A DNA stretch of 64,000 bases, taken from assembly GCA_963777155.1 (NCBI GenBank), contig CAVZPM010000039.1:32001-96000 (forward strand), in the 5' to 3' direction. Below, piece by piece: positions 1-58,172 of the stretch. The DNA comes from Candidatus Bathyarchaeota archaeon (GTDB lineage: Archaea; Thermoproteota; Bathyarchaeia; Bathyarchaeales; Bathycorpusculaceae). The translations under genes were made by a program, and so were the position numbers. The number at the start of each line of letters is the position of its first letter. The first letter of the stretch is position 1. The notes beneath the pieces were generated by a model. That model made no database searches, was not told the origin of the DNA, and saw only the letters and a program-made list of their open reading frames with translations.

Positions 1-67
1 ATCTAAGTGAAGGCGAACCCTTCTTAGCCACTTGGAGCAGTGCCCCGCATTTTGGACAGAAATTCAT
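1..67 (-). CDS. 5' end of a zinc-ribbon protein, probably transcription factor S / RpoM family (runs off the window)
   Basis: Minus strand from ATG at 67 reads MNFCPKCGALLQVAKKGSPSLR, a typical TFS/RpoM N-terminal FCPKCG ribbon; not in the ORF track. Confidence 0.6.
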   Translation of the reverse strand, partial: MNFCPKCGALLQVAKKGSPSLR

Positions 68-314
68 TGTTAGTCACTTTCGTCAGAACTTTTCTAATTT
101 AAAATAATTATTATATTTTATGAATTACACATCACAAATAATTCGATTAACATATGCAAAGACATAAGAAAAGCCAATTTTTCTTTTTTACTCGATCAAA
201 AATAGGGTAACAGTATAGTCAGAAACGAGTATGCGACTTTTAGAGAAACTTCTGCTTATTTATCCACGATTATTTTATATGGACAAAAATTAACAATATG
301 TAATGTGAAATCAT

Positions 315-794
315 ATGTCCTTCCTTGATATTCCCGCGATATCTGTTGTGATTGCGTCAGCCAGCGTAATTGGCAGTGCAGTCTATTACATGATTGAAAC
401 CAGACATCAGCGTAGGATTAGGCAAACCGAGAGTATTATCAGGCTTTCTCCATGGTTTAGTTTGGATGCGAAAGAAATTCAAGAGGCAATAAGCAATGTT
501 TGCTCCCTTGAATATACTGATTACAAGGATTATCTTGCAAAATATGATGGAAAACCCGAACAGATATCACTAAAACTTTTGGGCAATTATTTTGAAGGCA
601 TTGGCTTGCTCGTTTACATGAAATTGGTAGAGCTTGACATTGTCTTTAATTTTTGGGGTGACGTTGCAGAATCTGTTTGGGACGATAATGAAGAGTTAAT
701 TAACGGTATGCGTGAGGATTCTGGCACTCCATTTACGTTTCAATATTGGGAGTTTCTTGTAAAAGAGTTCAAGAAAAGAAAAACTTGCTCTTAA
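315..794 (+). CDS. DUF4760-like membrane-anchored protein
   Basis: N-terminal TM helix followed by NYFEGIGLLV...FQYWEFLV pattern resembling DUF4760. Confidence 0.6.
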   Translation: MSFLDIPAISVVIASASVIGSAVYYMIETRHQRRIRQTESIIRLSPWFSLDAKEIQEAISNVCSLEYTDYKDYLAKYDGKPEQISLKLLGNYFEGIGLLVYMKLVELDIVFNFWGDVAESVWDDNEELINGMREDSGTPFTFQYWEFLVKEFKKRKTCS

Positions 795-40585: not shown

Positions 40586-42379
40586 ATGTCAAAACTCAAC
40601 CTCAAACAATCAATCAAAGAATCAATAGCTAAAACAATTACCAAACTAAAACGATCCAGTAAAGCTGACAAAAGCCCCCAAAAATCAAAAATAAACAAAA
40701 AAAGCTTCCTGGCAAACGCCACAGCACGTATAAAAAACATAAAACTCCCTAAAATAAAACTTAAAATTCCAAAAATAAACCTTAAGATTCCAAAAATAAA
40801 ACTTAAACTCAACCTAAATCTTAAAAAGAAAAAAGCCGAACCAGAACCAATCCCCATAGCCAAAACGCTTCAAAAAGGCATAAAAATCATTGACAAATAC
40901 TCACTTTATGAACCATTCGCCCAGGTAGCAATAGTCCAAGACCCCAAAACGGGCGAACACAAATATATTCTCGATGAGCTCCAGCTTGACCCAATGGAAC
41001 GCGGAATATACAACCGCATCCTAGAAATCTTGCTGGCTGAAATCGAATCCCCAAAAGAGGAAATAGCTGACCCCAGAAAGTTTTTCGCTGAAGAAGCCAA
41101 AAAAATCGTCGATAAATACCGAATCAGCCTCGGTTGGCTTCCTGATGTTTCTTGGTACAAAATTCTCTATCATGCTGAACGCGATTTAGTCGGTTTTGGT
41201 AAAATCGATCCGTTAATGAGGGACCCCAACATTGAAGACATTTCCTGCGACGGAGTAAACAAACCCGTTTACATTTGGCACCGCGTCTTCGAAAGCATAG
41301 AAACTAACCTGCAGTTTGAAAGTGACGAGGACCTAGATAATCTGGTCGTCAAACTGGTTCACATGGCAGGCAAACATGTCAGTAGCGCCTTCCCTATCGT
41401 TGACGCTTCGCTTCCAGGAAAACACCGCTTAGCAGTAGCTTACAGACGGGAAATTACGCCATTTGGCACTGCCTATACCATCCGAAAATTCCGCGAAGAC
41501 CCCTACTCAATAATTGACCTAATCAACATCGGCACCTTCACCGAAGAAATGGCAGCTTACCTTTGGATTTGCCTAGAAAACCGCGCCTCTGTCATGGTTC
41601 TAGGAGGAACCGCAGCGGGCAAAACAACCGCGCTAAACGCTTTGGGCTGCCTGATTAAGCCAGGTAGCAAGATTATGACTATCGAAGAAACCGCTGAACT
41701 TAACTTGTCCCATGAAAACTGGGTCTCACTCATCGCGAGACAAAGTTACGGCTTAGGTGGAAGCAGTGTCGGAGAAGTTGCATTATTTGACTTGGTAAAG
41801 ACATGCATGAGACATCGCCCTGACTTGATGATTGTAGGCGAAGTCCGAGGCCAAGAAGCATACGTCTTATTCCAGGCTCTAGCCACAGGTCACGGTGGCA
41901 TGTGTACAATGCACGCTGAAAACGTTCAGTCAGCAATCAGGCGTCTCACTCAAAAGCCCATGGACATTTCGCCAGCGTATATCCCGTTAATGAACATAGT
42001 CATGTCCGTTCAACGTGTTCACTTAGTAAAGAATGGCGAAAAGAAAGCTTACCGCCGAATACTATCAGTCAACGAAATCATTGATTCCGAAAAATACGTT
42101 AATCCATTCAAGTGGGATCCAATCAAAGACCAGCAGACGGTCGATATAGCTTCCAGCTTCTTGCTCACTAACTATGCAGAGCGCTTAGGAATAACGCGTG
42201 AACAACTTGTTGATGAGTTGAATCGCAGAAGGGATGTGTTGCATTGGATGATAATGAGTAATATACGGAGTTACAAAGAAGTCGCCTCAATCATCGCCGA
42301 ATACTATGCTAGACCAAAAGAGTTCTACCAAAGAACAGTTGAAAGTGAGGAGGCTAAACCAGTTGCCAATGCTAAATAA
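40586..42379 (+). CDS. Type II/IV secretion (pilus assembly) ATPase with Lys-rich N-terminal extension
   Basis: IEDISCDG, TIRKF, Walker A GGTAAGKTT, IEETAEL, VGEVRG, TGHG...HA. Confidence 0.93.
   Translation: MSKLNLKQSIKESIAKTITKLKRSSKADKSPQKSKINKKSFLANATARIKNIKLPKIKLKIPKINLKIPKIKLKLNLNLKKKKAEPEPIPIAKTLQKGIKIIDKYSLYEPFAQVAIVQDPKTGEHKYILDELQLDPMERGIYNRILEILLAEIESPKEEIADPRKFFAEEAKKIVDKYRISLGWLPDVSWYKILYHAERDLVGFGKIDPLMRDPNIEDISCDGVNKPVYIWHRVFESIETNLQFESDEDLDNLVVKLVHMAGKHVSSAFPIVDASLPGKHRLAVAYRREITPFGTAYTIRKFREDPYSIIDLINIGTFTEEMAAYLWICLENRASVMVLGGTAAGKTTALNALGCLIKPGSKIMTIEETAELNLSHENWVSLIARQSYGLGGSSVGEVALFDLVKTCMRHRPDLMIVGEVRGQEAYVLFQALATGHGGMCTMHAENVQSAIRRLTQKPMDISPAYIPLMNIVMSVQRVHLVKNGEKKAYRRILSVNEIIDSEKYVNPFKWDPIKDQQTVDIASSFLLTNYAERLGITREQLVDELNRRRDVLHWMIMSNIRSYKEVASIIAEYYARPKEFYQRTVESEEAKPVANAK
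40748..40810 (+). repeat. 3 x 21-nt tandem repeat encoding PKI(K/N)LK(I/L)
   Basis: CCTAAAATAAAACTTAAAATT / CCAAAAATAAACCTTAAGATT / CCAAAAATAAAACTTAAACTC. Confidence 0.85.
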
Positions 42380-44084
42380 GTTCGAAGCCTGGTCATTTCG
42401 TCTTTTCGGCCGCTTCGCTCCATATTTTCTGAAAAACGTCTTTCCACAAGTCAAAGGTACGCTAGAGAAGGGTCGAGTGAGAATTTACCCTGAAACATAC
42501 ATCTCACTTATGTTCTTCGTTGCATTGTTAACCCTGCCTGTATCGATTTTCGCGGTAGCGGTGGCTTTAACTTTTGGGTTCTTACCCATTCTTGCCCTAG
42601 CTTTCCTGCCTCTCTTTGTTATCGTAGGTTTTCTGATTGTTCCAATGAACAATGCCAGTGATAGATCCTCTGGTCTGGAGCGCGAAATGCCTTTTGCGGC
42701 AGCATACATCAGTGTTATGTCGTCAGGTGGTATAGCACCCTATACTAGCTTCAAACGTTTAACTCAAGTTGACCTTATGCCTACGATGAGTAAGGAAGCA
42801 AGAGACATCATAAAAGATGTGGAAATCTTCGGCGTTGATCCACTTTCAGCCCTTGATATAGCTGCAAAAAAGACTCCGCTTGACATCTTCAAGGATTTTT
42901 TGGGCGGCTACGCCTCCACGGTCATTATAGGCGGCGACATCGGACACTATCTTGAACGCAAAGCAGAAGATATCTTCAAAATACGTGCACTAAGGGTTAA
43001 AGCGGCTGCTGAACGTCTAGGCATGTTGCTGGAAACTTTCATAATCGTTATGGTTATGATGTCATTGTGTTTTTACATTCTGTTTGCTGTAAATGGCATC
43101 CAGAGTGGAGTCAGCTCAACTGCTGATATATCACAGTTCTCAGGTATACTGCTGTACACTTACATTTTCACGCCTATGCTTTCAGTAATGTTCATCTATC
43201 TCGCGCATAGCATGCAGCCGAAAACACCCCTTATGGAAATGCGTCCATACAAAATATTCGGTATATTCAGTGTAGTTGCTGTAATCGTGTTCCTGCTTCT
43301 CACCAACTTCTTGGGCGCAACTCAGCTTCCAATCTTTACTCAGTTGCAAGCGATAGGAGTTGACTTGCCAATAGCCTTAGCTGTGTCATTGTTCATTTCT
43401 GCCGCACCAGCCGCAATGGTACACATTAAATTAGCCAAAGTCAAAAATAGCATGGAACAAGGAGTCACAAACTTCCTACGAGACCTCACCGAAGTGAGAA
43501 AAACTGGGCTCTCACCGGAAAAATGCATCGAAAGCCTCTCTAAACGTGACTATGGCACTTTCACTAAGGAACTTAGAAAAATCAGCACCGAGATTTCCTG
43601 GGGCATCCCCATCAAGAACGTCATGATGAAATTCCTTCACCGGACACAAAGTTGGATGGTGCAAATCGTCATGTTTCTGCTAGTCGAGACCATAGATGTG
43701 GGAGGCGGAACCATCGCTATGATCGAGTCTTTAGCGCGGTTCAACAATCTAACTCAAGAAGTGGAAAAAGAAAAGAAAATGAATGTCCGCCCCTACGTAT
43801 TCATGCCTTACTTAGCCTCGATTCTGCTGGTGGCGACTACCATAATGATGATGGGATTAACCACCGGAATAACTGTGCCTGGGGTGAACTCCGCTCCACA
43901 GGATAACAGTCTGATGCAGGTAGTATTCATCTCATCTGTTATCTTCAACAGCTATCTCATCGGTATTGTTGCAGGAAAAATCAGTGAAGAATCCGTTGGA
44001 GCGGGCTTTAAGCATGCTGCCATACTTGTCCTAATCTCAATAGTAGCTGCCAAGTTGATTCCGCAATTCGTAAAACTAGGATAA
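42369..44084 (+). CDS. Type II secretion system F / TadC-like platform protein (two T2SSF domains)
   Basis: EREMPFAAAY...GVDPLSAL and NFLRDLTEVRKTGLSP; multiple TMs; ORF track starts at 42306. Confidence 0.9.
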   Translation: MLNKFEAWSFRLFGRFAPYFLKNVFPQVKGTLEKGRVRIYPETYISLMFFVALLTLPVSIFAVAVALTFGFLPILALAFLPLFVIVGFLIVPMNNASDRSSGLEREMPFAAAYISVMSSGGIAPYTSFKRLTQVDLMPTMSKEARDIIKDVEIFGVDPLSALDIAAKKTPLDIFKDFLGGYASTVIIGGDIGHYLERKAEDIFKIRALRVKAAAERLGMLLETFIIVMVMMSLCFYILFAVNGIQSGVSSTADISQFSGILLYTYIFTPMLSVMFIYLAHSMQPKTPLMEMRPYKIFGIFSVVAVIVFLLLTNFLGATQLPIFTQLQAIGVDLPIALAVSLFISAAPAAMVHIKLAKVKNSMEQGVTNFLRDLTEVRKTGLSPEKCIESLSKRDYGTFTKELRKISTEISWGIPIKNVMMKFLHRTQSWMVQIVMFLLVETIDVGGGTIAMIESLARFNNLTQEVEKEKKMNVRPYVFMPYLASILLVATTIMMMGLTTGITVPGVNSAPQDNSLMQVVFISSVIFNSYLIGIVAGKISEESVGAGFKHAAILVLISIVAAKLIPQFVKLG

Positions 44085-44090
44085 GGAGCG

Positions 44091-44972
44091 ATGACAATGC
44101 GAAATAGTCAAAGAAGCTTTCGGAAAGATAAGAGGGCAGCTAGCCCAGCTATCTCAACGGTCATAATGATGGCTGCCGGAGTCGCCATGATTCTAGTTGC
44201 AATGACTTACGCAAACAACATGTTAGGAACGAAGATGGCAGAGAACGAATACAACACAAACAAGCAATTCATGCAAACTACGGGACAACAAATTGATGAC
44301 ATCGCTTGGACAGTGGGTCGTACTCAAACAGTCAGTTTTTCAAGCAAGTATGGCAACATGAAGTTCCAAGAAGTTGCGCTTAACTACACTTTTCAAGTTC
44401 AATACAGTTCAGGGGTATGGCAGAATCTAAGTTTGTCCGGCAAGACAGGAATAATCCTGTATAATATGCCTGTGGGCTACTACTCTTTGGGCAACAACTC
44501 GTTCGCACGCGTTCCATTTGCTTCCAATAGCTCATTTCTCCTGTCTGATTCAACAGCGCCGATAAGCCAAGTTATATGTGAACAGAGATTGCCTATGAGT
44601 GACGGTGGCTACGCGCGAATCGTTTTAGTTCCGACAATGAGGGTTCTTACTTCAACTATAACATCAACCACTGGGTCAACGAACTACTTTAAGTTCTATC
44701 TTCCAGACCTTGAAAACGGTACAAACCTCTACAGATCCCAATCCATAACTTTAACAGGTAATGGTATATCGAAAGTAACTCAAGATCACGTTGACCAAGT
44801 AATTATAAGTGTGAGTTTTCCTCAGGGAGCGTCTCTTGGATTTGATTCTTCTTTTTTCAACTTCAAAAGCAATACTATAACACTCAATAATACTTCCACT
44901 CCGAGGCTGCCAGCTGACTCAGTTGTTGAATTTTATGTTGGCAAAGTGGTTGTTACGATAGGGCAGGTATAA
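44091..44972 (+). CDS. Pilin-like protein with class III signal peptide
   Basis: RKDKRA/ASPAISTVIMMAAGVAMILVA. Confidence 0.8.
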   Translation: MTMRNSQRSFRKDKRAASPAISTVIMMAAGVAMILVAMTYANNMLGTKMAENEYNTNKQFMQTTGQQIDDIAWTVGRTQTVSFSSKYGNMKFQEVALNYTFQVQYSSGVWQNLSLSGKTGIILYNMPVGYYSLGNNSFARVPFASNSSFLLSDSTAPISQVICEQRLPMSDGGYARIVLVPTMRVLTSTITSTTGSTNYFKFYLPDLENGTNLYRSQSITLTGNGISKVTQDHVDQVIISVSFPQGASLGFDSSFFNFKSNTITLNNTSTPRLPADSVVEFYVGKVVVTIGQV

Positions 44973-44990
44973 AACTATGGAGGTTGAATC

Positions 44991-45467
44991 GTGCCGTCGA
45001 TAACCATTGAATACATGATAATGATTCCTGTCCTTATTCTACAGATCTTCCTTTTCCCTATAGCCGCCTCAGTAATCATGAACACTTGGGCGGATTCCAG
45101 CATGACACTTCAACTCCAAGAAACGGCAGGGCACATCGGCAGTTCTATCCAGCAGCTATACTACACTATGAATCACGCCTCAATTCCCAACGGTACAATG
45201 TCAATCACCTTAGATACACCACAATTAATAGAAGGACATGTTTACACAACGACCCTAAGTCATGCGAATAACCTTGAAACCTCAATCCAAATAATGAACG
45301 TCACGCTCAAGCTGTTAGGCACCAAAGACCAAACTTCAACATTAGTGACGCTTGGACAAAATGTTGACTGGCAAGAAAACTTGGCCTTCAATAGCACTGC
45401 GCATTCACTTAGCATAGTCGCCCACAAGACGTCTAATTCTATCTTGCTATCCTTCGGAGGAACATAA
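44991..45467 (+). CDS. Minor pilin-like protein (no basic leader)
   Basis: PSITIEYMIMIPVLILQIFLF; SD GGAGGT; position in pilus operon. Confidence 0.7.
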   Translation: MPSITIEYMIMIPVLILQIFLFPIAASVIMNTWADSSMTLQLQETAGHIGSSIQQLYYTMNHASIPNGTMSITLDTPQLIEGHVYTTTLSHANNLETSIQIMNVTLKLLGTKDQTSTLVTLGQNVDWQENLAFNSTAHSLSIVAHKTSNSILLSFGGT

Positions 45468-45471
45468 CAAT

Positions 45472-46704
45472 ATGGCGAGTGGATCAATCGACCATATGAT
45501 TTCCCTGATAATATTTATTGCAGCTATCACGATATTTATTGGTCTTTTCAGCCAAAGCATGCAGACCGGGATTACCTACGAACGTCACAAGGTGTTGTCT
45601 ACTAAAACCAGTGACCTCTTAGATAACGTACTCTTGAATCCAGGTATACCTAGTACTTGGGGAAAAAGTGACGGTGCAATTATTGGGTTTGGGCTGCAGA
45701 ATCCAGACTACTCACAATACAAATTGAGTTCGTTTTCTCTGATGCGGTTAGTTTCCACTCAATCGCCTGTTTATTATCCCAGAACTGGCACATACTATAG
45801 CAATGATAGCGTTAGATCAGGCAGCTACTTACTTGTGCCTTCCACAGAAAGCGTAAACTACTCTACCGTTTCCAAGATTCTAGGAATAAATGGTACCTAC
45901 GGATTCCAATTATCTCTGTCTCCAACACTAACTTTTGATTTTCAAAAAATATCTGATTATTCGCCACTAACTATGCAGGTTAGCATATACGGCACGGGTT
46001 ATCCACTTGCAAATGCACCAATAATCTATAGCCTTATGGTAGTTAACCCAGGCACAGGTAATTATCCCTCATACACAGTTGTCAACAATGTATCTACCAC
46101 TGATGGAGCGGGATTAGCACAATTGGTATTTCCCCAAATCACTAGCGGAAGCCAATCTTATGCGCTAATAATATATTCAGACCTTAATGGACTCAAAGGA
46201 ACAGGCTACTACGTAAACAATCCACCTAGCTTCTCTAAAACAGTGATTCCTTTAACTGATAGTTTCCAAAACAGAACAATCTTGCTTACCCACAGCGACT
46301 CCATAGGTCAGCCTCCACAGCCTCCAGTTTACTCAAAGTTGGGTTATAACGCATCATTTGTGATTTTGACTGAGGATTACACATTGCGCCAAGTACAATT
46401 AGACCAACAAAGTGCGGTTGGAAATCTATCTTATGCCTCCGGCAGCGAACCAGACCACGTTTCCATAACGGTTCCAGATAATGAAGGAATTTTAATTGTA
46501 ACTTACAAGAGCACTTCAGGGCAGTGTGGGGTTGTTCTAATGCCTTGGGGGTTGGGTTCTCTGGCTTTCCCCCTAAAGTTTGGCGGTAATCCAGCGGGAC
46601 AAGAATGGGTTACAACTGATATTCGGCAAGTTACTGTCGGCGGTATCGCTTATCAGGCTCAACTTAGCCTTTGGAATCTGCAAGGATATTCGGGGACTGG
46701 TTAA
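45472..46704 (+). CDS. Minor pilin-like protein (no basic leader)
   Basis: ASGSIDHMISLIIFIAAI...LLNPGIPSTW...GFGL; SD GGAGGA. Confidence 0.7.
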   Translation: MASGSIDHMISLIIFIAAITIFIGLFSQSMQTGITYERHKVLSTKTSDLLDNVLLNPGIPSTWGKSDGAIIGFGLQNPDYSQYKLSSFSLMRLVSTQSPVYYPRTGTYYSNDSVRSGSYLLVPSTESVNYSTVSKILGINGTYGFQLSLSPTLTFDFQKISDYSPLTMQVSIYGTGYPLANAPIIYSLMVVNPGTGNYPSYTVVNNVSTTDGAGLAQLVFPQITSGSQSYALIIYSDLNGLKGTGYYVNNPPSFSKTVIPLTDSFQNRTILLTHSDSIGQPPQPPVYSKLGYNASFVILTEDYTLRQVQLDQQSAVGNLSYASGSEPDHVSITVPDNEGILIVTYKSTSGQCGVVLMPWGLGSLAFPLKFGGNPAGQEWVTTDIRQVTVGGIAYQAQLSLWNLQGYSGTG

Positions 46705-48009
46705 ATGATTCGAACAATCGAAATCCTATTTGTTATAATAATTATCTCTGGCGCAGTGATTGCGACTTCATACTTTACTGTTCTACCATCGCCAAGAGAA
46801 GTCTCGCCAATAAACCTTCGACGCTTATCTTTCACGACCTTGCAGGTGCTTGATTCAGATTATGACTTAAGTCGAGCTGCTTTCCAAACGGATAATGCTA
46901 CAGCTTGGAGCGGGCTGCAAGTTGCGCTTTCAGCTTCCTTACCTTCCAACGTAGTGTACAATCTAACAGTTTATGACGTCAATGATCAAGATGGGCAAGT
47001 CTATAGCTATGTGTCTTCTATCTCAAATGCCGCGAGCCTTTCAACCTCTGATGTTTCGACTTACACTGTGGCCTCTTCGAACGTTACATTTAATTTTACA
47101 CCACAGAAAATCGGTGAAGGCAGCGGTGGAACTCTCTACATATTGAATTGCAGTGACGCAAATGGATGGTGGATTACAGGCTATACAGCGCAGAGCTTAG
47201 CACAAGACCTCTACAACCTGTTATCGCCATATTTTGTTAACACTATAATGGTTCAAAATACGTCCCAGCTTGCCCAGATTTAAGCGGAACATCCATTACA
47301 AGGAGAGTCTCTTCAGAACGCGGTTGTCATCAATACTTATGGAGAAGCGGTACCTATCCCAACGACTTATTGCCAAGCGCCTTATTCCCAGAACGCGTAT
47401 GCGTATTACAGTTACTACTTAGGGCAACGGGTAAACCTTTACAATTGGACCTGGTCCAGCATAGTAGGCTACCCATTCTACTATGTAAGCAACACTGGGG
47501 CGTTTTCAGGTGTACAAAATGGTTGGGGTATTTACGGGATGCAAATGACGGGTCCAGGAGGCTCAAGGGCTTTCCTCGAGGGTATAAATAACCAAACCTA
47601 TGTTTCTAACACTAATGCAGTTACTGATAGTGCTAACAGGCAGGTCACATTTACACAAAACGTCTTAGATAAGAGCAATTATTATGGAATTTATCCTTCG
47701 ACATATCAGACTTCAACCAGAGCCTTATCCAACTCAACCTTGGCAGGTTACAACCTTAGAGTTGGACTCAACATATTCAACCCGGCTGGTGACTATTTTG
47801 CTGGAGCCATTTACAATCACTATGCAACTGGTTCATCAAACATTACTGGTTCACTCTTAGCCTTAGGATTAACTCGAACACCTGACGTTCGAGTCACAGG
47901 CATAGGTCTCCTGTCATATTATCAACCTAGATTATATGCATCAGAATATACAGCACAGGGCACTTCGCGATTGGTAATTTTACAGTTGGGTTTGGTGGGG
48001 AGTGTATAG
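46705..48009 (+). CDS. Pilin-like protein interrupted by an in-frame TAA at 47281 (probably compensating indel errors)
   Basis: IRTIEILFVIII N-terminus; ORFs 46705-47283 and 47539-48009 share one frame that is open after the TAA. Confidence 0.7.
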
Positions 48010-48010
48010 A

Positions 48011-51000
48011 ATGAACAACAAAGGTCAATTTTCAATCATAGCCGCATTGCTTGTTGCAGTGGTCTTAATCGCTTCAGTTATTGGCACTTACTCAGCCATT
48101 CGCTATAGTCCGATCCAAGAACAACCTCAAATCTTGAGTTCTATAGATGAAACCAACCAAGCGCTTAAACAGCTATTAGGTTTTACTGTAGGTTATTATG
48201 GTTCCGTTTTAAAGGTAACAGGAAATGTGACTTATGCTCAGAAGTTAGCCCAAGACTACTTTGATGGCGGCATTGGGAATCTGGGTTCTATTAAGCCTGA
48301 GTGGGGTTTGGCGTTGAATGCCTCTCAAGTGGAGCTTAAAGCGAATTGGTTTACCAACGATAGTTACAGTCAAGGTAGTATGAACGTCACTTATGATTTG
48401 AACGGTTTAGGAATAACGGGAGTAAGCTACTCCGCTTCAAGTCGATTAGAGGTACAAGTATCAAACATTAACTCAACAACGCAGGCACAGTTCAAAATAT
48501 TAACAGACAACAGTGAACCACTAATCAACCTTGGAGCTAATAACCTGAAGTTCTTCCGATATGTGTTTGGAAACTTAACATGGGACTTTTCGGTTCCTAC
48601 CAACGTAATTTCGCATGCAGATGGAACTTACATAGTTGACTTGCCTTCAGGAGTATCAAGCAACGCCTACGTGCTTCAAGTTGAAGATATCCGTGGTCTC
48701 TCAGTTTTAGCCGCATCTTACAGCCAATTCACTTCTTCGATTGCTTGGAATAAAACAGCGTACGGAACTGATTTGGACTATGTAGATAACGCCAACTTAA
48801 ACGTTACCGGTACACATGGTAACTTCACTGCCCAACAATACGGACCCGACAATGTCTACGACACCTTGACAGAAGCAGCTTCAGGAATCACTCAAGTGCC
48901 AAGCTACCCCACAAACTACAACACCTACGGCTCAACCACATTAGCTAGTGGGTCCATAGGTAATTTGCAAGTTAACGATGGCAATTACCTTAGTTTTCAC
49001 TCTTATAGTTCAGCCTATGGTGGCTCAGCTAACTTTGGATACACCTCAGTAGGCGGGACAAGCAGCGATTTAACTTACGTCAGAGGTTCCAGATTTACAT
49101 TAGGTGCATCAAACGGTTTAGCAAATAGTGTAAGTGCATACCTGGGTTTCACAGGTTCTAGTAATACTTTCGGGAACACCAACACCGGTTCCTCGGGTAG
49201 TGCAATCATCGACACGATTAGGGGTCAACGTTTTACTTCTCCTGCCAATCCAGTCGTCGCCCAAAGCATATCCGCTTATATTTACTGCACAACAAGCGCC
49301 AAGAACATGAAAGCAGCCCTCTATGACTCAAGCGGAAACCTAATTGCTACAACCAACCAAAACTCTATACCTGCAAGCGCTTCTGCGGCTTGGCAGACCT
49401 TTATTTTTGCTTCTCCGCCAACCTTAACGGCAAACACCCAATATGTGTTGGTGGTTTGGTCCCAGTTTGGAACAGGAAGTGGCGATCTACGCTATAGCTC
49501 TGCAACTGGTGGTAACGGTCGTTCTCTAAGTCAATCTTACGGAACTTGGCCATCTTCACCGTCTTTTTCAACGGACGCTGTTCAATACTCAATCTACTGT
49601 AACTACCTAACAACATTCAAGGTGCAAGCCGCCATTTATTCTGGCACTGGTGGTGCAATTGTTGGAACAACGGAGGAAAAGACCTTAACGACAACCAACG
49701 GCTGGGTCACCTTCAACTTTATAACCCAACCAACATTAACTGCATCTACAAATTATGTTTTAGCCATTGAGTCTTCTGATACAAGCGCAACCATGTACTA
49801 CAATAGCGGTGCAGAGTATTTCCGTGCTTCTAGGAACTATCCCACCTGGCCAACCACAATTGCTGACCAGGGCAGTCAACGTCGATATAGCATCTACTGT
49901 ACTTATTCACCTGCGAACCAGCACACCGCACAGGTTGAGTTAATAGGCAATTCAACTGCGCCTTTACCGTGGAGTGACCTTACATGGGTTATAGACAGTT
50001 CAACTTCCACGAGTTCAGTTGCTACAACTTTCCAACTCTACAACTGGGGCACAGGACAATACCCCATTAGTGGCGACGGGTATATGACAGCATCACTTTC
50101 AAGTGGCGATACAACAAAGACACAAACGATAGTTGTTAATCCTGCTAACTTCTTGAACAGTAGTGGCTATTGGAAAGTAATGATTACTGCAGTCAAATCG
50201 GTTGCCACAGCCTTTGACCTCAATTTTGACATGGTGCAGTACAGCCCAGACGCTACCAATTACGCACTTAACCTTCAAGAACAATGGACAAATGTTAACG
50301 CGACGAACCTTCGCCAAGATCTTTGCATCAAAACAGGCACCATGGGTACAGAGCCTTTGTTAGTCCAGGTCTTACATAGTGGCGTATGGCAGAATCTGAT
50401 GACGCTATCTCCGAACTATTTCAACAATGTTTCCCTCGCGCCATACATAGACTCTTCAACTCTCACAATTCGTTTCATAGGAACCAACGATGTAACCGAT
50501 CCAACACAGGACAGTTGGAACATCGACTCAGTGTTCCTGCAAGATGAACCCGACATCACCTTCCTGGTCAATCAGCAACAATCTACATTTGCACTTGAGA
50601 TCCTTCAGAACGGTACAATGCGCTGGCTGGGGCAAAATATGCAAATAACTACCCAAACCTTACCCATTCCACCCATTCCAGTGAAAGCAATTCATGTTAA
50701 CCAGACAATAAACGGCATAAACCAGGAAGTTCCTTTCCAAATTGAAGACTGGGCGTCTAACTACCAAATACCCTTGGGATTAACGAGTAACACTACCCTC
50801 TTCGGAAATAGGCAAATGATTGTCTTTCTCTTAAATAGTAAAGTTACCGATTTTACAGTTTGGTGGAATGGAAGCGATATAGCAACCCAAACACCGCTAG
50901 CCTACACCAGTAGATACTTCACTAATGACAATCCAACCTCCTCGATACTTACGAATGGTAACGTTACTCTCCAATTCGGAAGCTTTAATGTTAAGACAAC

Positions 51001-51733
51001 TGTTGCTGGATCGGGCAACTTTAGTACCGCAAATTTCATGCGTATTAACCAGGAAGCAAGCGTGTATGGTGCCGGCGCGGCATTTGTGATTCACCATGGT
51101 ATAGTCAGAGATGTTGTTCAGCAAGAAGCAGAGTGGAACGATGGTGCAGCGGGTTCTCCCAACCTCTATGCAAACATCGTCTTAACACTTCCAGCAAACA
51201 CAACCTACTACACGTACCAACTACGAATAATGTTTATTACTTCAACTCAGGCACGCTCTATCACAGATCTCTGTCCAATACAACTCACAACCTCTCTGTC
51301 CTCAGTGCAGACTCAAACAGAAAATGGCACACTCGCTGGCTTACCTACAATTCAGAATGGCACAGGAACCTTCATTAACTCTACAATCAGCAGTTGGACG
51401 CCGCATCACTTTAGCCAATTCATGTCAAGCGATGGAAAGGGTGCAGGATTAATGTTTTCAGACGTAGCTAACCAGAAGCTTTACGCATTTGATTCCTTCT
51501 CAGCAAGCACCTCTAAGGGTGCCTTAAAAGCTAGCAGTGGATTGCTTGAATTGTTGCCTGTGAGCCAATCGCAAGTTCAGTTTACCTACGCCTATGATAC
51601 TACTTGGGTGGGTGCAGTAGCAACGTTTGATGGAACAACACCTATCGCTAATCTTTATAGAGGAACTACTCCTATGGGTCTTTGGATTTTAGTTGAGTAT
51701 CCACCCACGTTAACCGTTACAGTAAATAGTTAA
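48011..51733 (+). CDS. Giant pilin-like adhesin (~1240 aa) with class III signal peptide
   Basis: MNNKG/QFSIIAALLVAVVLIA; Ser/Thr/Asn-rich beta domains with an internal repeat; ORF track starts at 48002. Confidence 0.85.
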   Translation: MNNKGQFSIIAALLVAVVLIASVIGTYSAIRYSPIQEQPQILSSIDETNQALKQLLGFTVGYYGSVLKVTGNVTYAQKLAQDYFDGGIGNLGSIKPEWGLALNASQVELKANWFTNDSYSQGSMNVTYDLNGLGITGVSYSASSRLEVQVSNINSTTQAQFKILTDNSEPLINLGANNLKFFRYVFGNLTWDFSVPTNVISHADGTYIVDLPSGVSSNAYVLQVEDIRGLSVLAASYSQFTSSIAWNKTAYGTDLDYVDNANLNVTGTHGNFTAQQYGPDNVYDTLTEAASGITQVPSYPTNYNTYGSTTLASGSIGNLQVNDGNYLSFHSYSSAYGGSANFGYTSVGGTSSDLTYVRGSRFTLGASNGLANSVSAYLGFTGSSNTFGNTNTGSSGSAIIDTIRGQRFTSPANPVVAQSISAYIYCTTSAKNMKAALYDSSGNLIATTNQNSIPASASAAWQTFIFASPPTLTANTQYVLVVWSQFGTGSGDLRYSSATGGNGRSLSQSYGTWPSSPSFSTDAVQYSIYCNYLTTFKVQAAIYSGTGGAIVGTTEEKTLTTTNGWVTFNFITQPTLTASTNYVLAIESSDTSATMYYNSGAEYFRASRNYPTWPTTIADQGSQRRYSIYCTYSPANQHTAQVELIGNSTAPLPWSDLTWVIDSSTSTSSVATTFQLYNWGTGQYPISGDGYMTASLSSGDTTKTQTIVVNPANFLNSSGYWKVMITAVKSVATAFDLNFDMVQYSPDATNYALNLQEQWTNVNATNLRQDLCIKTGTMGTEPLLVQVLHSGVWQNLMTLSPNYFNNVSLAPYIDSSTLTIRFIGTNDVTDPTQDSWNIDSVFLQDEPDITFLVNQQQSTFALEILQNGTMRWLGQNMQITTQTLPIPPIPVKAIHVNQTINGINQEVPFQIEDWASNYQIPLGLTSNTTLFGNRQMIVFLLNSKVTDFTVWWNGSDIATQTPLAYTSRYFTNDNPTSSILTNGNVTLQFGSFNVKTTVAGSGNFSTANFMRINQEASVYGAGAAFVIHHGIVRDVVQQEAEWNDGAAGSPNLYANIVLTLPANTTYYTYQLRIMFITSTQARSITDLCPIQLTTSLSSVQTQTENGTLAGLPTIQNGTGTFINSTISSWTPHHFSQFMSSDGKGAGLMFSDVANQKLYAFDSFSASTSKGALKASSGLLELLPVSQSQVQFTYAYDTTWVGAVATFDGTTPIANLYRGTTPMGLWILVEYPPTLTVTVNS

Positions 51734-51843: not shown

Positions 51844-52668
51844 ATACAATCATTACAGATCGCTTTAACCGCGGCAAACGTAATTGTCACCTTGGTTTTT
51901 CTGCTTTATGCTTCGTGGCGAGATCACAAAACAAGGGAAGTCAGTAATCGCGTTTGGGTAATTTACGGGCCTATAGCACTAACTCTGTCTCTCTCCGAAT
52001 TACTATTCTTTGAGCCATCTCAATTACCCCTTTATGGTTTAAGTGTTGGTGTAACAGTTGGTTTTGCGCTTCTTTTGTTCTATTCTAGCGGCTTTGGTGG
52101 TGCAGACTCTAAAGCCCTCATGTGTATCGCTCTTGCTTTACCCTTTGCCCCTGTTGCCCTCACTATGCCCTTCTTAGCTGAGGGACTATCGCCCATTGCT
52201 CAGTATATTTATCCCATAACTATTCTAGGTAACTCCGTTTTTTTCGCTGCGGCAACCGCCATATATATGGCTCTGCGAAATGTCGTTTGGCACAAAAAAA
52301 ACGGTGTTCAAATGTTCCAGGGGACACTAGCTTCCGAGTCCCTGGGCAAAAAATTTCTTGCGGCCATAACTGGTTATCCTACACCTGTTGACACACTAAA
52401 GAAAAAGCATATGTTCCCAATGGAAGACCTCGAGGAACAAACGGAAAACTTTGTGAAACGCAAACTTGTGGTGTTTCCACAGGATGAGGAGACACAAGAT
52501 AAAACCCTTGAACGTCTATCTAACGCTGTGCAATCTGGAAAAATCAATAACTATGTTTGGGCAACCCCGGGATTGCCTATGTTGATTTTTGTTACTTTAG
52601 GCTTAATTGTTGCCTTAACCTTTGGCGACATTGTGTGGCTGCTAATCAGACTTATTTTAGGAGCCTAA
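51844..52668 (+). CDS. A24 prepilin peptidase (PibD/FlaK-like)
   Basis: ASWRD...REV, GFGGADSKA, VWATPGLPML; first TM extends upstream of TTG 51892 to an ATA at 51844. Confidence 0.9.
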   Translation: MQSLQIALTAANVIVTLVFLLYASWRDHKTREVSNRVWVIYGPIALTLSLSELLFFEPSQLPLYGLSVGVTVGFALLLFYSSGFGGADSKALMCIALALPFAPVALTMPFLAEGLSPIAQYIYPITILGNSVFFAAATAIYMALRNVVWHKKNGVQMFQGTLASESLGKKFLAAITGYPTPVDTLKKKHMFPMEDLEEQTENFVKRKLVVFPQDEETQDKTLERLSNAVQSGKINNYVWATPGLPMLIFVTLGLIVALTFGDIVWLLIRLILGA

Positions 52669-56933: not shown

Positions 56934-58172
56934 TTGAGAACTCATAAAATAACCCTCGTTCTTCTGTCATTATTGCTAACCAGCATATTCTTAACCGTAC
57001 AAGTCAGCTTTCCCAGCAACAAGCTTGCCGCCTCGGGCGACGTGGGAACACAAGTAGGTGGAACAATAACAACCAACACAACTTGGACAGTAGCAAACAG
57101 CCCCTATATCATAACCGAAACGATACAAATCCCAGAAGACGTTACTCTGATAATCGAGCCGGGTGTAACAGTCACTGTTCAGTCATCCGTAAACAAGATG
57201 TTTCTAATCAACGGTTTCATCACAGCCCATGGCGACGTTAACAGCAAAATAATTTTTGATGGCAACGGCAACTCAAACTTTTTTATGACAAATCATACAA
57301 ACGCTCCAGGATTCGCAGATTTGGATTACTGCATTATCAGAAATGGGTTGAGCGCCTTTTGGTTTGACAATACTGGCTCTTTTAATTTAACTAACTCAGA
57401 GTTAAGTAACTTGTCACAAGAATCTTACTTGTGGTACCCTTCGCAAAACGTATTTATTGAATATAATATTTTCACGAATACTTCAGGCATAAAGATAGGA
57501 ACAGATGATTACTATACTTCCAACACCACAGGATTTGTCTCGATAACGTACAACCTGTTCCTTAACAACCAAGGATACATCATTAACAACTTTGCAAGCT
57601 ATGGGTTAAGCAAAACCTATGTTAACAATAATTCTTTCACCAACACATTTGGAGTAATCCTCGAAGTAGAACAAACCTCAACCACTGCAGACATGGATGC
57701 TTCACAAAACTACTGGGGAACAGATAACACAACAATAGTCGATTCCATGATTTACGACATAAACGATGACACTGCATGCTCCAGCTACATAAATTACCTG
57801 CCCTTGCTTGATATTCCAGACCCCGACACTCCCATAGCGCCAACCCCAACACCATCACCAACGCCAACGGAAACACCTTCTCCTTCTCCAACCCCAGACC
57901 CCACAACCTCTCCTATTCCATCACCAACTCCAACAGATACCCAAATACCCACAACCGATGAGAACACCTCTTCTACTACTGAAATAACAACCCCTACATC
58001 TACAGGAACTCCAGATTCATCATCCAACCAAACCAGTAATCAGACCCCAAACACATTGAATGCCCAAACTATCCCAGAGATCTCACCTTTTGTCGCATTA
58101 GTAATTCTAATTGCTGGGGGTCCCATAGGCGCTATAGTGTTGCGAAAAACCAGAAAAACTAAGCATTCCTAA
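56934..58172 (+). CDS. Secreted beta-helix surface protein with Pro/Thr linker and PEF-like C-terminal sorting signal
   Basis: Signal peptide; GTITTNTTWT..SPYII..TLIIEPGV; NYWGT; (PT)n; IPEI plus TM plus RKTRK. Confidence 0.8.
   Translation: MRTHKITLVLLSLLLTSIFLTVQVSFPSNKLAASGDVGTQVGGTITTNTTWTVANSPYIITETIQIPEDVTLIIEPGVTVTVQSSVNKMFLINGFITAHGDVNSKIIFDGNGNSNFFMTNHTNAPGFADLDYCIIRNGLSAFWFDNTGSFNLTNSELSNLSQESYLWYPSQNVFIEYNIFTNTSGIKIGTDDYYTSNTTGFVSITYNLFLNNQGYIINNFASYGLSKTYVNNNSFTNTFGVILEVEQTSTTADMDASQNYWGTDNTTIVDSMIYDINDDTACSSYINYLPLLDIPDPDTPIAPTPTPSPTPTETPSPSPTPDPTTSPIPSPTPTDTQIPTTDENTSSTTEITTPTSTGTPDSSSNQTSNQTPNTLNAQTIPEISPFVALVILIAGGPIGAIVLRKTRKTKHS

Follow-up and report, generated by a model that had tools for sequence, protein, structure and literature searches.

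Why a giant pilin-like protein should carry a repeated beta-rich domain in the order N1-N2-C2-C1, and what such a protein might do, is the question raised by a locus of Candidatus Bathyarchaeota archaeon. The locus lies in a 64,000-nucleotide stretch (the window; contig CAVZPM010000039.1 of assembly GCA_963777155.1, positions 32,001 to 96,000 of the forward strand), and its product is referred to here as P0001. From the letters alone, the original prediction had read this order as one copy of the domain interrupted by a complete second copy, with the pair sitting inside two further split domains. After the analysis described below, it is considered likely that the gene, part of a Bathyarchaeia type IV filament operon, encodes a giant accessory protein with a prepilin-type signal and four beta-sandwiches arranged by recursive hairpin insertion between a conserved N-terminal region and a C-terminal supersandwich. 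Homolog comparison together with in-silico prediction shows, at the level of sequence and model, that the half-domains follow in mirror order, that three of the domains are discontinuous, that their halves are adjacent in relatives and that one fixed junction carries between 0 and 5 levels. The coordinates of all features are collected in Table 1.

All 18 motifs quoted in the original prediction were found in the translation of 48002-51733 (+), at positions right to within a few bases. The similarity between repeats was assayed by Smith-Waterman local alignment scored against shuffles. The N1 and N2 pieces gave a local score of 71 (shuffle mean 24.7, sd 4.7, z 9.8) and C2 and C1 a score of 135 (shuffle mean 31.7, sd 6.4, z 16.0), and the comparison of N1 with the C1 region was at chance level (z -0.6). 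These values bear out the order N1-N2-C2-C1 and not a tandem one. Global identity was 18/44 aligned positions for N1/N2 and 35/94 for C1/C2, and hhalign of the C1 and C2 family columns returned a probability of 100% (E 6e-43). No off-diagonal match was produced by blastp of the window protein against itself, and no DNA-level repeat longer than 17 nt was found in 48700-50600, including none between copies 1 and 2. The inner duplication is therefore old, because no such repeat remains in that region. Regarding the family of the repeat, residues 388-525 matched the NCBIfam model NF041539 (choice_anch_R) weakly, with 25.8 bits for a cut-off of 30, and PF13313 (DUF4082) gave no match in the window protein; the three-copy homolog P0040 matches PF13313 (E 1e-11, 45.4 bits, cut-off 28.4) and P0042 also passes.

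Homologs were collected by a word-seeded search with residues 250-860, which returned 220 proteins at E <= 0.001 among 8000 scored candidates. Our own hidden Markov models (HMMs) of the N and C pieces were then run on P0001 and on the best 120 of the 220 homologs, several of which are named Candidatus Bathyarchaeia or Bathyarchaeota. The piece strings were balanced in 99/121 proteins, with 40 reading NC (~1090 aa), 39 reading NNCC (~1243 aa) and 20 reading NNNCCC (1382-1435 aa if full length); 13 had neither piece and nine were unbalanced, being fragments or carrying a stray near-threshold piece match. The order NCNC was found in 0/121. When representatives of the classes were aligned, each extra copy was seen to be a whole domain that sits in a hairpin of the host copy, between ...S.SAY. 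and ..AAIY. Copy 1 is thus interrupted by a complete copy 2, as had been proposed: N1 and C1 flank a contiguous N2C2 (N2, residues 389-436; C2, residues 437-536), and the 40 single-copy homologs have N directly followed by C.

The two outer split domains, which the original prediction had inferred by likeness to similar archaeal surface proteins, are also present, according to homolog adjacency and predicted structure, as A2 with B2 and A3 with B3. Residues 259-848 accordingly read A3-A2-N1-N2-C2-C1-B2-B3, that is, four beta-sandwich domains each interrupted by the next, and the halves of A3/B3 and A2/B2 are 300-460 residues apart. In P0100, P0101 and P0111 (936-941 aa), A2 (...FRSYTSG) is directly joined to B2 (AEKRAQVEF...). 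When the outermost level was checked for adjacency in the way that the original prediction had proposed, P0154 (785 aa, with the same N-terminus) was found to read YDTLSE-AVNGT-TYALNLEEQW, A3 and then B3 directly. Homologs with adjacent halves were therefore found at every level: P0154 for level 3, P0100, P0101 and P0111 for level 2, and the 40 NC homologs for level 1. The proposal of repeated nesting is supported for four nested domains, but not for a single domain inserted throughout into itself: homology between levels 2 and 3 was not detected (pairwise z 0.0 and 0.8; hhalign 9.5% and 0.7%), and the self-nest comprises the two innermost domains only.

The lengths of the orthologs form a ladder of ~650, 785, 936, 1090, 1243 and 1390 aa. 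In P0093, P0095 and P0119 (~1110 aa), an unrelated insert of ~170 aa (residues ~336-510) occupies the level-2 hairpin used by the DUF4082-like copies. This ladder and the unrelated insert at the same site support the earlier suggestion of a lengthening protein with a variable tip. The insert of these three proteins matches no Pfam family, and the ESM Atlas clusters nearest to that of P0093 are unnamed and rich in tailed-phage proteins (0.94), which is a lead only. An artefact of metagenome-assembled genome (MAG) assembly was also considered and ruled out, as the same architecture occurs in dozens of independent assemblies.

To follow the same arrangement in three dimensions, an AlphaFold2 model of residues 241-863 was obtained from a 59-row alignment (mean pLDDT 92.1, pTM 0.68), and domain ranges were taken from VIA-align on the 1000 best Foldseek chains, as first and last aligned model residues and aligned lengths. 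The level-2 domain matched the carbohydrate-binding modules (CBMs) CBM4-2 3jxs_A (Z 10.9, rmsd 3.2 Å, 132 aligned, model range 58..509) and CBM16 2zew_A (Z 10.7, rmsd 3.4 Å, 127 aligned, model range 56..510). As B2 holds just 111 residues and 127-132 were aligned, A2 must share its sandwich with B2 in the model. The level-3 domain matched CBM8 7t7y (Z 10.1, rmsd 3.2 Å, 124 aligned, model range 10..608), CBM6 2cdo_A (Z 9.2, rmsd 3.3 Å, 117 aligned, model range 15..608; B3 has 97 residues) and two ephrin-receptor ligand-binding domains (Z 8.9). Copy 2 is contiguous in the model (145..298), with the Cwp84 lectin-like domain 4ci7_B as its best match (Z 14.6, rmsd 2.5 Å, 138 aligned), and by VIA-align it also resembles mycobacteriophage central-fibre and tail-tip domains and PHR domains. 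The top Foldseek match, reelin (6a48, E 1e-10, TM 0.12), was put down to several jelly rolls in a row.

As no VIA-align row listed spanned N1..C1, both parts (N1, 340-388; C1, 537-640) were run as two separate chains. They reassembled with an ipSAE of 0.89, compared to 0.01 for the best of three controls; the mark used for such split chains is reached by 51/78 solved complexes and by 2/108 mismatched pairs. At least 96% of the ~278 contacts agreed between runs, with a partner pLDDT of at least 84, and the SVSAYL strand was paired with residues 568-571 and 630-633. The split-chain prediction thus supports that N1 cannot be a separate unit. The predicted structure (AlphaFold2, VIA-align and split chains) shows discontinuous domains rather than contiguous segments that fold alone. 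The two refutation tests named in the original prediction, on homologs and on structure, were thus both decided in its favour.

These results bear on the possibility that A3, A2, N1, N2C2, C1, B2 and B3 each fold separately, like beads on a string, the similarities N1-N2 and C2-C1 being due to two small tandem duplications. The string N N C C can formally be written as two tandem duplications, and among the distant relatives described below the A and B counts are unequal in 25 of 89 representatives with an A+B+ pattern. However, at each level there are natural orthologs in which the two halves are joined as one contiguous domain, the alignments of single-domain CBMs to A plus B cover more residues than B has, the N1 and C1 strands interleave in silico, and the A pieces (34-43 residues, two to three strands in the model) are too small for stand-alone sandwiches. 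We therefore regard separate folding as very improbable and retain the nest of discontinuous domains.

A second possibility accepts discontinuous domains and pairs them in parallel, by domain swapping, so that N1 completes C2 and N2 completes C1. There is a precedent in the HABAS domains of RNA polymerase Si3, which are domain-swapped in some cases (PMC11515920). Nevertheless, N2 and C2 abut without a linker, as N and C do in single-copy homologs, N2C2 superposes as one contiguous domain with the Z of 14.6 given above, N1 and C1 assemble with each other as separate chains, and among mixed-type outer pieces of distant relatives a parallel-only order was found in 0/36. The phylogeny of the pieces points in the same direction: when the outer-clade label was mapped on the N-piece tree, two changes were required under nest pairing and eight under parallel pairing, with a shuffle mean of 47. 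Parallel pairing is thus hardly credible, and N1 with C1 around N2C2 is the pairing that we adopt.

The history of the copies was followed on a tree built from 178 C pieces, in which the outer copies group in one clade (SH-aLRT 100) that takes in 33/39 of the first copies of two-copy proteins, 14/20 of the first copies of three-copy proteins and 8/40 single copies. A separate clade (98) holds the second copies of two- and three-copy proteins, and its sister comprises 17/20 innermost third copies. Positional orthology (outer, middle, inner) required eight label changes, and three alternatives required 10, 11 and 19. It is therefore most likely that the third copy originated from the second, within which it lies. 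Exceptions were also found: P0026, P0027 and P0034 have innermost copies that cluster with the single copies of a different lineage, and in P0099 the two copies are sisters; these cases point to repeated independent events. New layers could have been added either by whole-domain copy-paste or by two successive partial duplications.

To place the gene in its genomic context, one genome per species was scanned, which gave 214 relatives; synteny and architecture were counted in the best 80 of them, all from Bathyarchaeota/Bathyarchaeia MAGs. The giant gene closes a row of genes with hydrophobic N-termini, after the ATPase and the platform protein and before the A24 peptidase. This arrangement is widely kept, with the ATPase in 65/80 loci, the platform protein in 66/80, the peptidase in 74/80 and each of five small genes in 66 to 74. 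The architecture of the nest differed among these loci, being AABB in 20, AANCBB in 16, AB in 15, without any piece in 13, AANNCCBB in eight, and odd or fragmented in another eight. In the set of 61 intact orthologs, window protein included, the lengths were 633-661 and 774-793 aa for proteins without pieces, 938-951 and 1183-1185 aa for AB, 936, 1109-1177 and 1332 aa for AABB, 1085-1115 aa for AANCBB, and 1193-1256 aa for AANNCCBB.

The shortest classes locate the site of insertion. In the level-0 orthologs (633-661 aa), the end of the N-terminal region, ...TLNWN, is joined straight to the start of the C-terminal region, ...ELLQNGTMRWLGQNL, at the junction that corresponds to the ...IAWN end of the N-terminal region in the window protein. 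The 774-793-aa class has a single contiguous domain of ~125 aa at the same junction. Therefore, a base protein of ~650 aa takes up the whole nest at a single fixed junction. When the architecture label was mapped on a tree of the 61 intact orthologs, built from their 400 C-terminal residues, at least 21 changes were required (shuffle mean 37.3, minimum 31); as the labels come from our own HMMs and the tree is a quick one, 21 changes are a rough lower bound on a labile trait.

Table 1. Features of the giant pilin-like gene and of the surrounding operon, with positions in the window and residue numbers (res) of the 1243-aa protein.
Feature	Position	Strand	Basis
Giant pilin-like protein gene, 1243 aa from GTG 48002	48002..51733	+	ORF, translation, homologs
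Prepilin-type (class III) signal, then the hydrophobic N-terminal helix: MNNKG/QFSIIAALLVAVVLIASVIG...	48011..48106	+	sequence; homolog alignment
Conserved N-terminal globular region, res 36-258, ends ...IAWN	48107..48775	+	conservation in two homolog alignments
A3: N-terminal half of outermost host beta-sandwich (level 3), res 259-292	48776..48877	+	homologs, model
A2: N-terminal half of second host beta-sandwich (level 2), res 296-338	48887..49015	+	homologs, model
N1: four N-terminal strands of outer DUF4082-like domain (copy 1), res 344-387	49031..49162	+	repeat alignment, homologs, model, split chains
N2+C2: complete contiguous inner DUF4082/choice-of-anchor-R-like domain (copy 2), res 389-536, innermost doll	49166..49609	+	repeat alignment, VIA-align, NF041539
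C1: C-terminal part of copy 1, res 542-636	49625..49909	+	repeat alignment, homologs, split chains
B2: C-terminal part of level-2 host sandwich, res 640-750	49919..50251	+	homologs, model
B3: C-terminal part of level-3 host sandwich, res 752-848	50255..50545	+	homologs, model
Conserved C-terminal region, res 849-1243, galactose-mutarotase-like beta-supersandwich fold	50546..51730	+	alignment, model, structure matches
Type IV filament assembly ATPase (T2SSE; FlaI/BasE-like)	40586..42379	+	Pfam, NCBIfam; synteny
Platform membrane protein (T2SSF; UpsF/FlaJ-like)	42306..44084	+	Pfam, NCBIfam; synteny
Presumed pilin or minor-pilin genes (four, small or medium), with hydrophobic N-termini; the last is 46705-48009	44091..48009	+	ORFs, synteny
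Class III signal (prepilin/preflagellin) peptidase, Peptidase_A24 and Arc_PepC_II	51892..52668	+	Pfam, NCBIfam; synteny

The N-terminus of the protein fits export by the class III pathway. The sequence MNNKG/QFSIIAALLVAVVLIASVIG has a short charged leader, a [KR]G cleavage motif and a hydrophobic helix of ~20 residues, and the columns of this signal are nearly invariant in 59-60 aligned homologs. The ATG at 48011 is probably the true start, because homologs begin with MNNKGQFS, and starting from the GTG at 48002 places three extra residues (V/M-Y-R) ahead of that sequence. Some homologs carry the JGI names 'flagellin-like' or 'UPF0333', and the distant nest proteins P0253 and P0147 do match Pilin_N. 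The window protein contains 23 N-x-S/T sequons and is rich in Ser, Thr and Asn, a composition that would be compatible with a glycosylated surface protein. No second copy was found when its own genome was searched with this query.

The C-terminal region was modelled separately (residues 847-1243; pLDDT 83.5, pTM 0.87). This model matches the N-terminal half of the PL26 rhamnogalacturonan lyase 5xq3_B (Z 18.6, rmsd 3.2 Å, 296 aligned) and also the accessory domains of GH38 enzymes and galactose mutarotases, which share the beta-supersandwich fold; the likeness in fold shows no function. In the ESM Atlas, the clusters nearest to this part are unnamed bacterial ones, with PcRGLX_1st on 24% of one of them (score 0.89), again a lead only. 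No catalytic family was matched by the window protein in Pfam or NCBIfam, and no CBM model of Pfam was matched either, the CBM likeness being one of fold only. Comparison of the window protein with PDB sequences by phmmer gave only noise (E 0.81).

Signal type and operon suggest that the protein may be placed on a filament. The nest could also be real in a protein that is not borne by a pilus, such as a membrane-anchored or bindosome-like surface protein for glycan binding (or polymer processing) that uses the class III pathway for export only. The fold of the C-terminal region is that of accessory domains in glycoside hydrolases and lyases, the ATPase and the platform protein also match the bindosome models BasE (E 1e-74) and BasF (E 1e-29), both below cut-offs, and a review describes substrate-binding proteins that carry class III signals as widespread in archaeal type IV filament systems (PMC13705601). 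However, in 65-74/80 loci five pilin-like genes lie between platform protein and prepilin peptidase, with this gene at their end, no ABC transporter adjoins it, and no catalytic family was matched. A row of pilin-like genes between platform protein and peptidase is the typical layout of a minor-pilin set in type IV filaments. We consider a location outside the pilus less likely but a serious alternative, and an accessory protein of the filament operon remains the preferred reading.

Several points weigh against the overall reading of a nested accessory protein. The bindosome matches just mentioned are one; the N-terminus of the window protein does not match Pfam Pilin_N (PF07790), and no NCBIfam pilin model matches the protein either. 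The Pfam scan of P0001 returned no family at E <= 0.1, and the inner repeat stays below curated cut-offs, as with the 25.8 bits for choice_anch_R. The discontinuity of the domains was read from first and last aligned residues and aligned lengths, not from a contact map, a pTM of 0.68 leaves room for inter-domain uncertainty, and passing the split-chain mark measures the confidence of the predictor, which may reflect likeness to solved sandwiches. The unequal A and B numbers in 25/89 representatives could be due to missed pieces or to real imbalance. With regard to the trees, positional orthology needs eight changes where the minimum is two, and the N tree (47 columns) and the C tree (100 columns), both from a quick search and with many unresolved forks, are indicative only.

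The path of the chain that would produce the nest can be described as follows. After the N-terminal region, the chain would lay the first strands of the host domain X3 (A3), leave it at a beta-hairpin and lay the first strands of X2 (A2). It would then leave X2, lay the four strands of a DUF4082-like lectin-type sandwich (N1), leave again and make the complete N2C2. On its return it would complete C1, then B2 and then B3, in mirror order. As each inserted domain would enter and leave its host via one hairpin, neighbours would be tied by two covalent strands. The nest would start and end at one point of the conserved base and may project from it as an arm, with the innermost lectin-type domain as its most distal element, so presenting modules of glycan-binding type. 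Whole domains may be inserted, deleted or replaced by evolution at the same hairpins, which would tune reach and attachment specificity. The arm may be a straight telescoping stalk with apical insertion loops, and the protein may act as a pilus adhesin.

The same mirror grammar was followed in distant relatives through an exhaustive phmmer search of 1.84 billion cluster representatives, which gave 1571 proteins at E <= 0.001, 752 of them at E <= 1e-10. Many of the best 150 of these 1571 match the B2 or B3 part multiple times. When the piece HMMs were run on 147 new representatives, clustered at 50% identity, 130 carried A or B pieces; 89 had a simple A+B+ pattern and 64 had equal A and B numbers. 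In the 36 balanced representatives of mixed type, the order was mirror-only in 32, parallel-only in none, compatible with both in three and with neither in one; both mixed orders were seen, A2 A3..B3 B2 in 15 and A3 A2..B2 B3 in 14. The order NCNC appeared in one of 57 representatives with N or C pieces (P0221, copies ~580 residues apart).

The deepest case is the 2025-aa metagenome protein P0135, whose residues 855-1869 hold an F5/8 type C (discoidin) domain (1153-1252, Pfam E 1e-08) preceded by six A3 pieces and followed by six B3 pieces; judged from these pieces, it would be a nest of seven domains, with identical hosts around a lectin core. P0129 carries five A2 and four B2 pieces, P0165 four A3 and four B3, and P0188 a mixed, bracket-like form, A3 A3 B3 A3 B3 B3. 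A Pfam scan of 46 distant nest proteins named the cores of P0147 (F5/8 type C) and P0208 (Laminin_G_3); the other matches lay outside the cores, and most cores had no Pfam name. Among 400 other genomes sampled from the phylum, 36 had a B2/B3 match at E <= 1e-5, and these matches were concentrated in the window's own family (14/25 genomes) and in one other family (11/32). In a related genome of the same order, a B2-like match (G216:C1:37485-37802) lies within an open frame of 4343 aa, so that this order also has very large proteins with such modules.

From these relatives, we tentatively put forward, as a possibility with slightly less than even chances, that Bathyarchaeia and neighbouring lineages of the phylum use a 'bracket grammar' for surface proteins, in which insertion-tolerant jelly-roll modules of A/B type nest recursively at one hairpin, with up to six identical layers around a lectin core, and layers are gained, lost or swapped between species of one family, giving an attachment organ of variable length and tip. 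If this were true, successive domains would be linked by two strands, unlike the tandem Ig-like beads of other prokaryotes.

Two further observations concern other genes of the window. In the gene at 46705-48009, an in-frame TAA at 47281-47283 (+) gives two open reading frames (ORFs) in the same frame, of 192 and 156 aa. Both parts are one ORF in 66/73 related loci that have both, and the position of the TAA is Leu or Ile in eight aligned one-ORF relatives; it could be due to a nonsense mutation or to an error of sequencing or, with lower likelihood, be a stop that is read through. Downstream, at 56934-58172 (+), an ORF of 412 aa begins with a signal-like N-terminus, is rich in repeats in its middle and continues through a linker rich in Pro, Thr and Ser to a hydrophobic anchor at the C-terminus, with basic residues after it; by its sequence it looks like another surface protein.

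With respect to known systems, a 2026 survey (PMC13114784) reports that 20% of multidomain proteins contain insertions and that the cyanobacterial RNA polymerase beta' has a recursive nest of six levels. The Si3 region of that subunit is the closest analogue, as domains of the same family are inserted repeatedly and the chain returns in mirror order (PMC13114784 and PMC11515920). Si3 differs in being part of an intracellular enzyme, with one architecture per lineage and a small, partly domain-swapped fold of the HABAS / sandwich-barrel hybrid motif type. In contrast, the window protein is extracellular and pilin-like, and its sandwiches, of jelly-roll or lectin type, belong to at least three sequence families; the depth ranges from 0 to 5 levels in orthologs from one operon, and the cargo is interchangeable.

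Among domain families, the N/C unit is of the DUF4082 (PF13313) / choice-of-anchor R (NF041539) kind, the window protein being below both cut-offs; the literature searched on these families gave no case of self-insertion at the hairpin that joins the fourth strand to the fifth. The fold of X2 and X3 is that of the jelly rolls of CBM4, 6, 8, 16 and 61 and of the ephrin-receptor ligand-binding domain (Z 9-11, rmsd 3.2-3.4 Å, 117-136 aligned), without sequence similarity (identity 7-17%), and large insertions split both X2 and X3. Domain insertion is known to be common and nesting is documented. In the literature searched, neither archaeal pilin-like proteins nor DUF4082/choice-of-anchor proteins were described as having nested domains, and no variable-depth nest in an archaeal surface protein was found.

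Among pilus proteins, the type IV pili of bacteria have large minor pilins and tip adhesins such as CofB/TcpB and PilY1/PilC. A 'PilY-like' adhesin, arCOG03511, belongs to the archaeal subsystem 4A (PMC13705601). The window protein shares with all of these a pilin-type N-terminus or pilus association and a large binding region encoded in a pilus operon. It differs from them in that their domain orders are linear, and its C-terminal fold is a supersandwich, not a beta-propeller. The nest also explains the lack of Pfam annotation in these abundant Bathyarchaeia proteins, as linear profile models miss discontinuous domains, and the locus points to a probable attachment organ of an uncultured archaeal group that is globally abundant in sediment and soil. 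Extended extracellular stalks are normally tandem arrays of domains; in this case recursion seems to serve that purpose, and syntenic orthologs provide a complete series of natural intermediates, from 0 to 5 levels. Therefore, the evolution and folding of deep domain insertion become directly testable.

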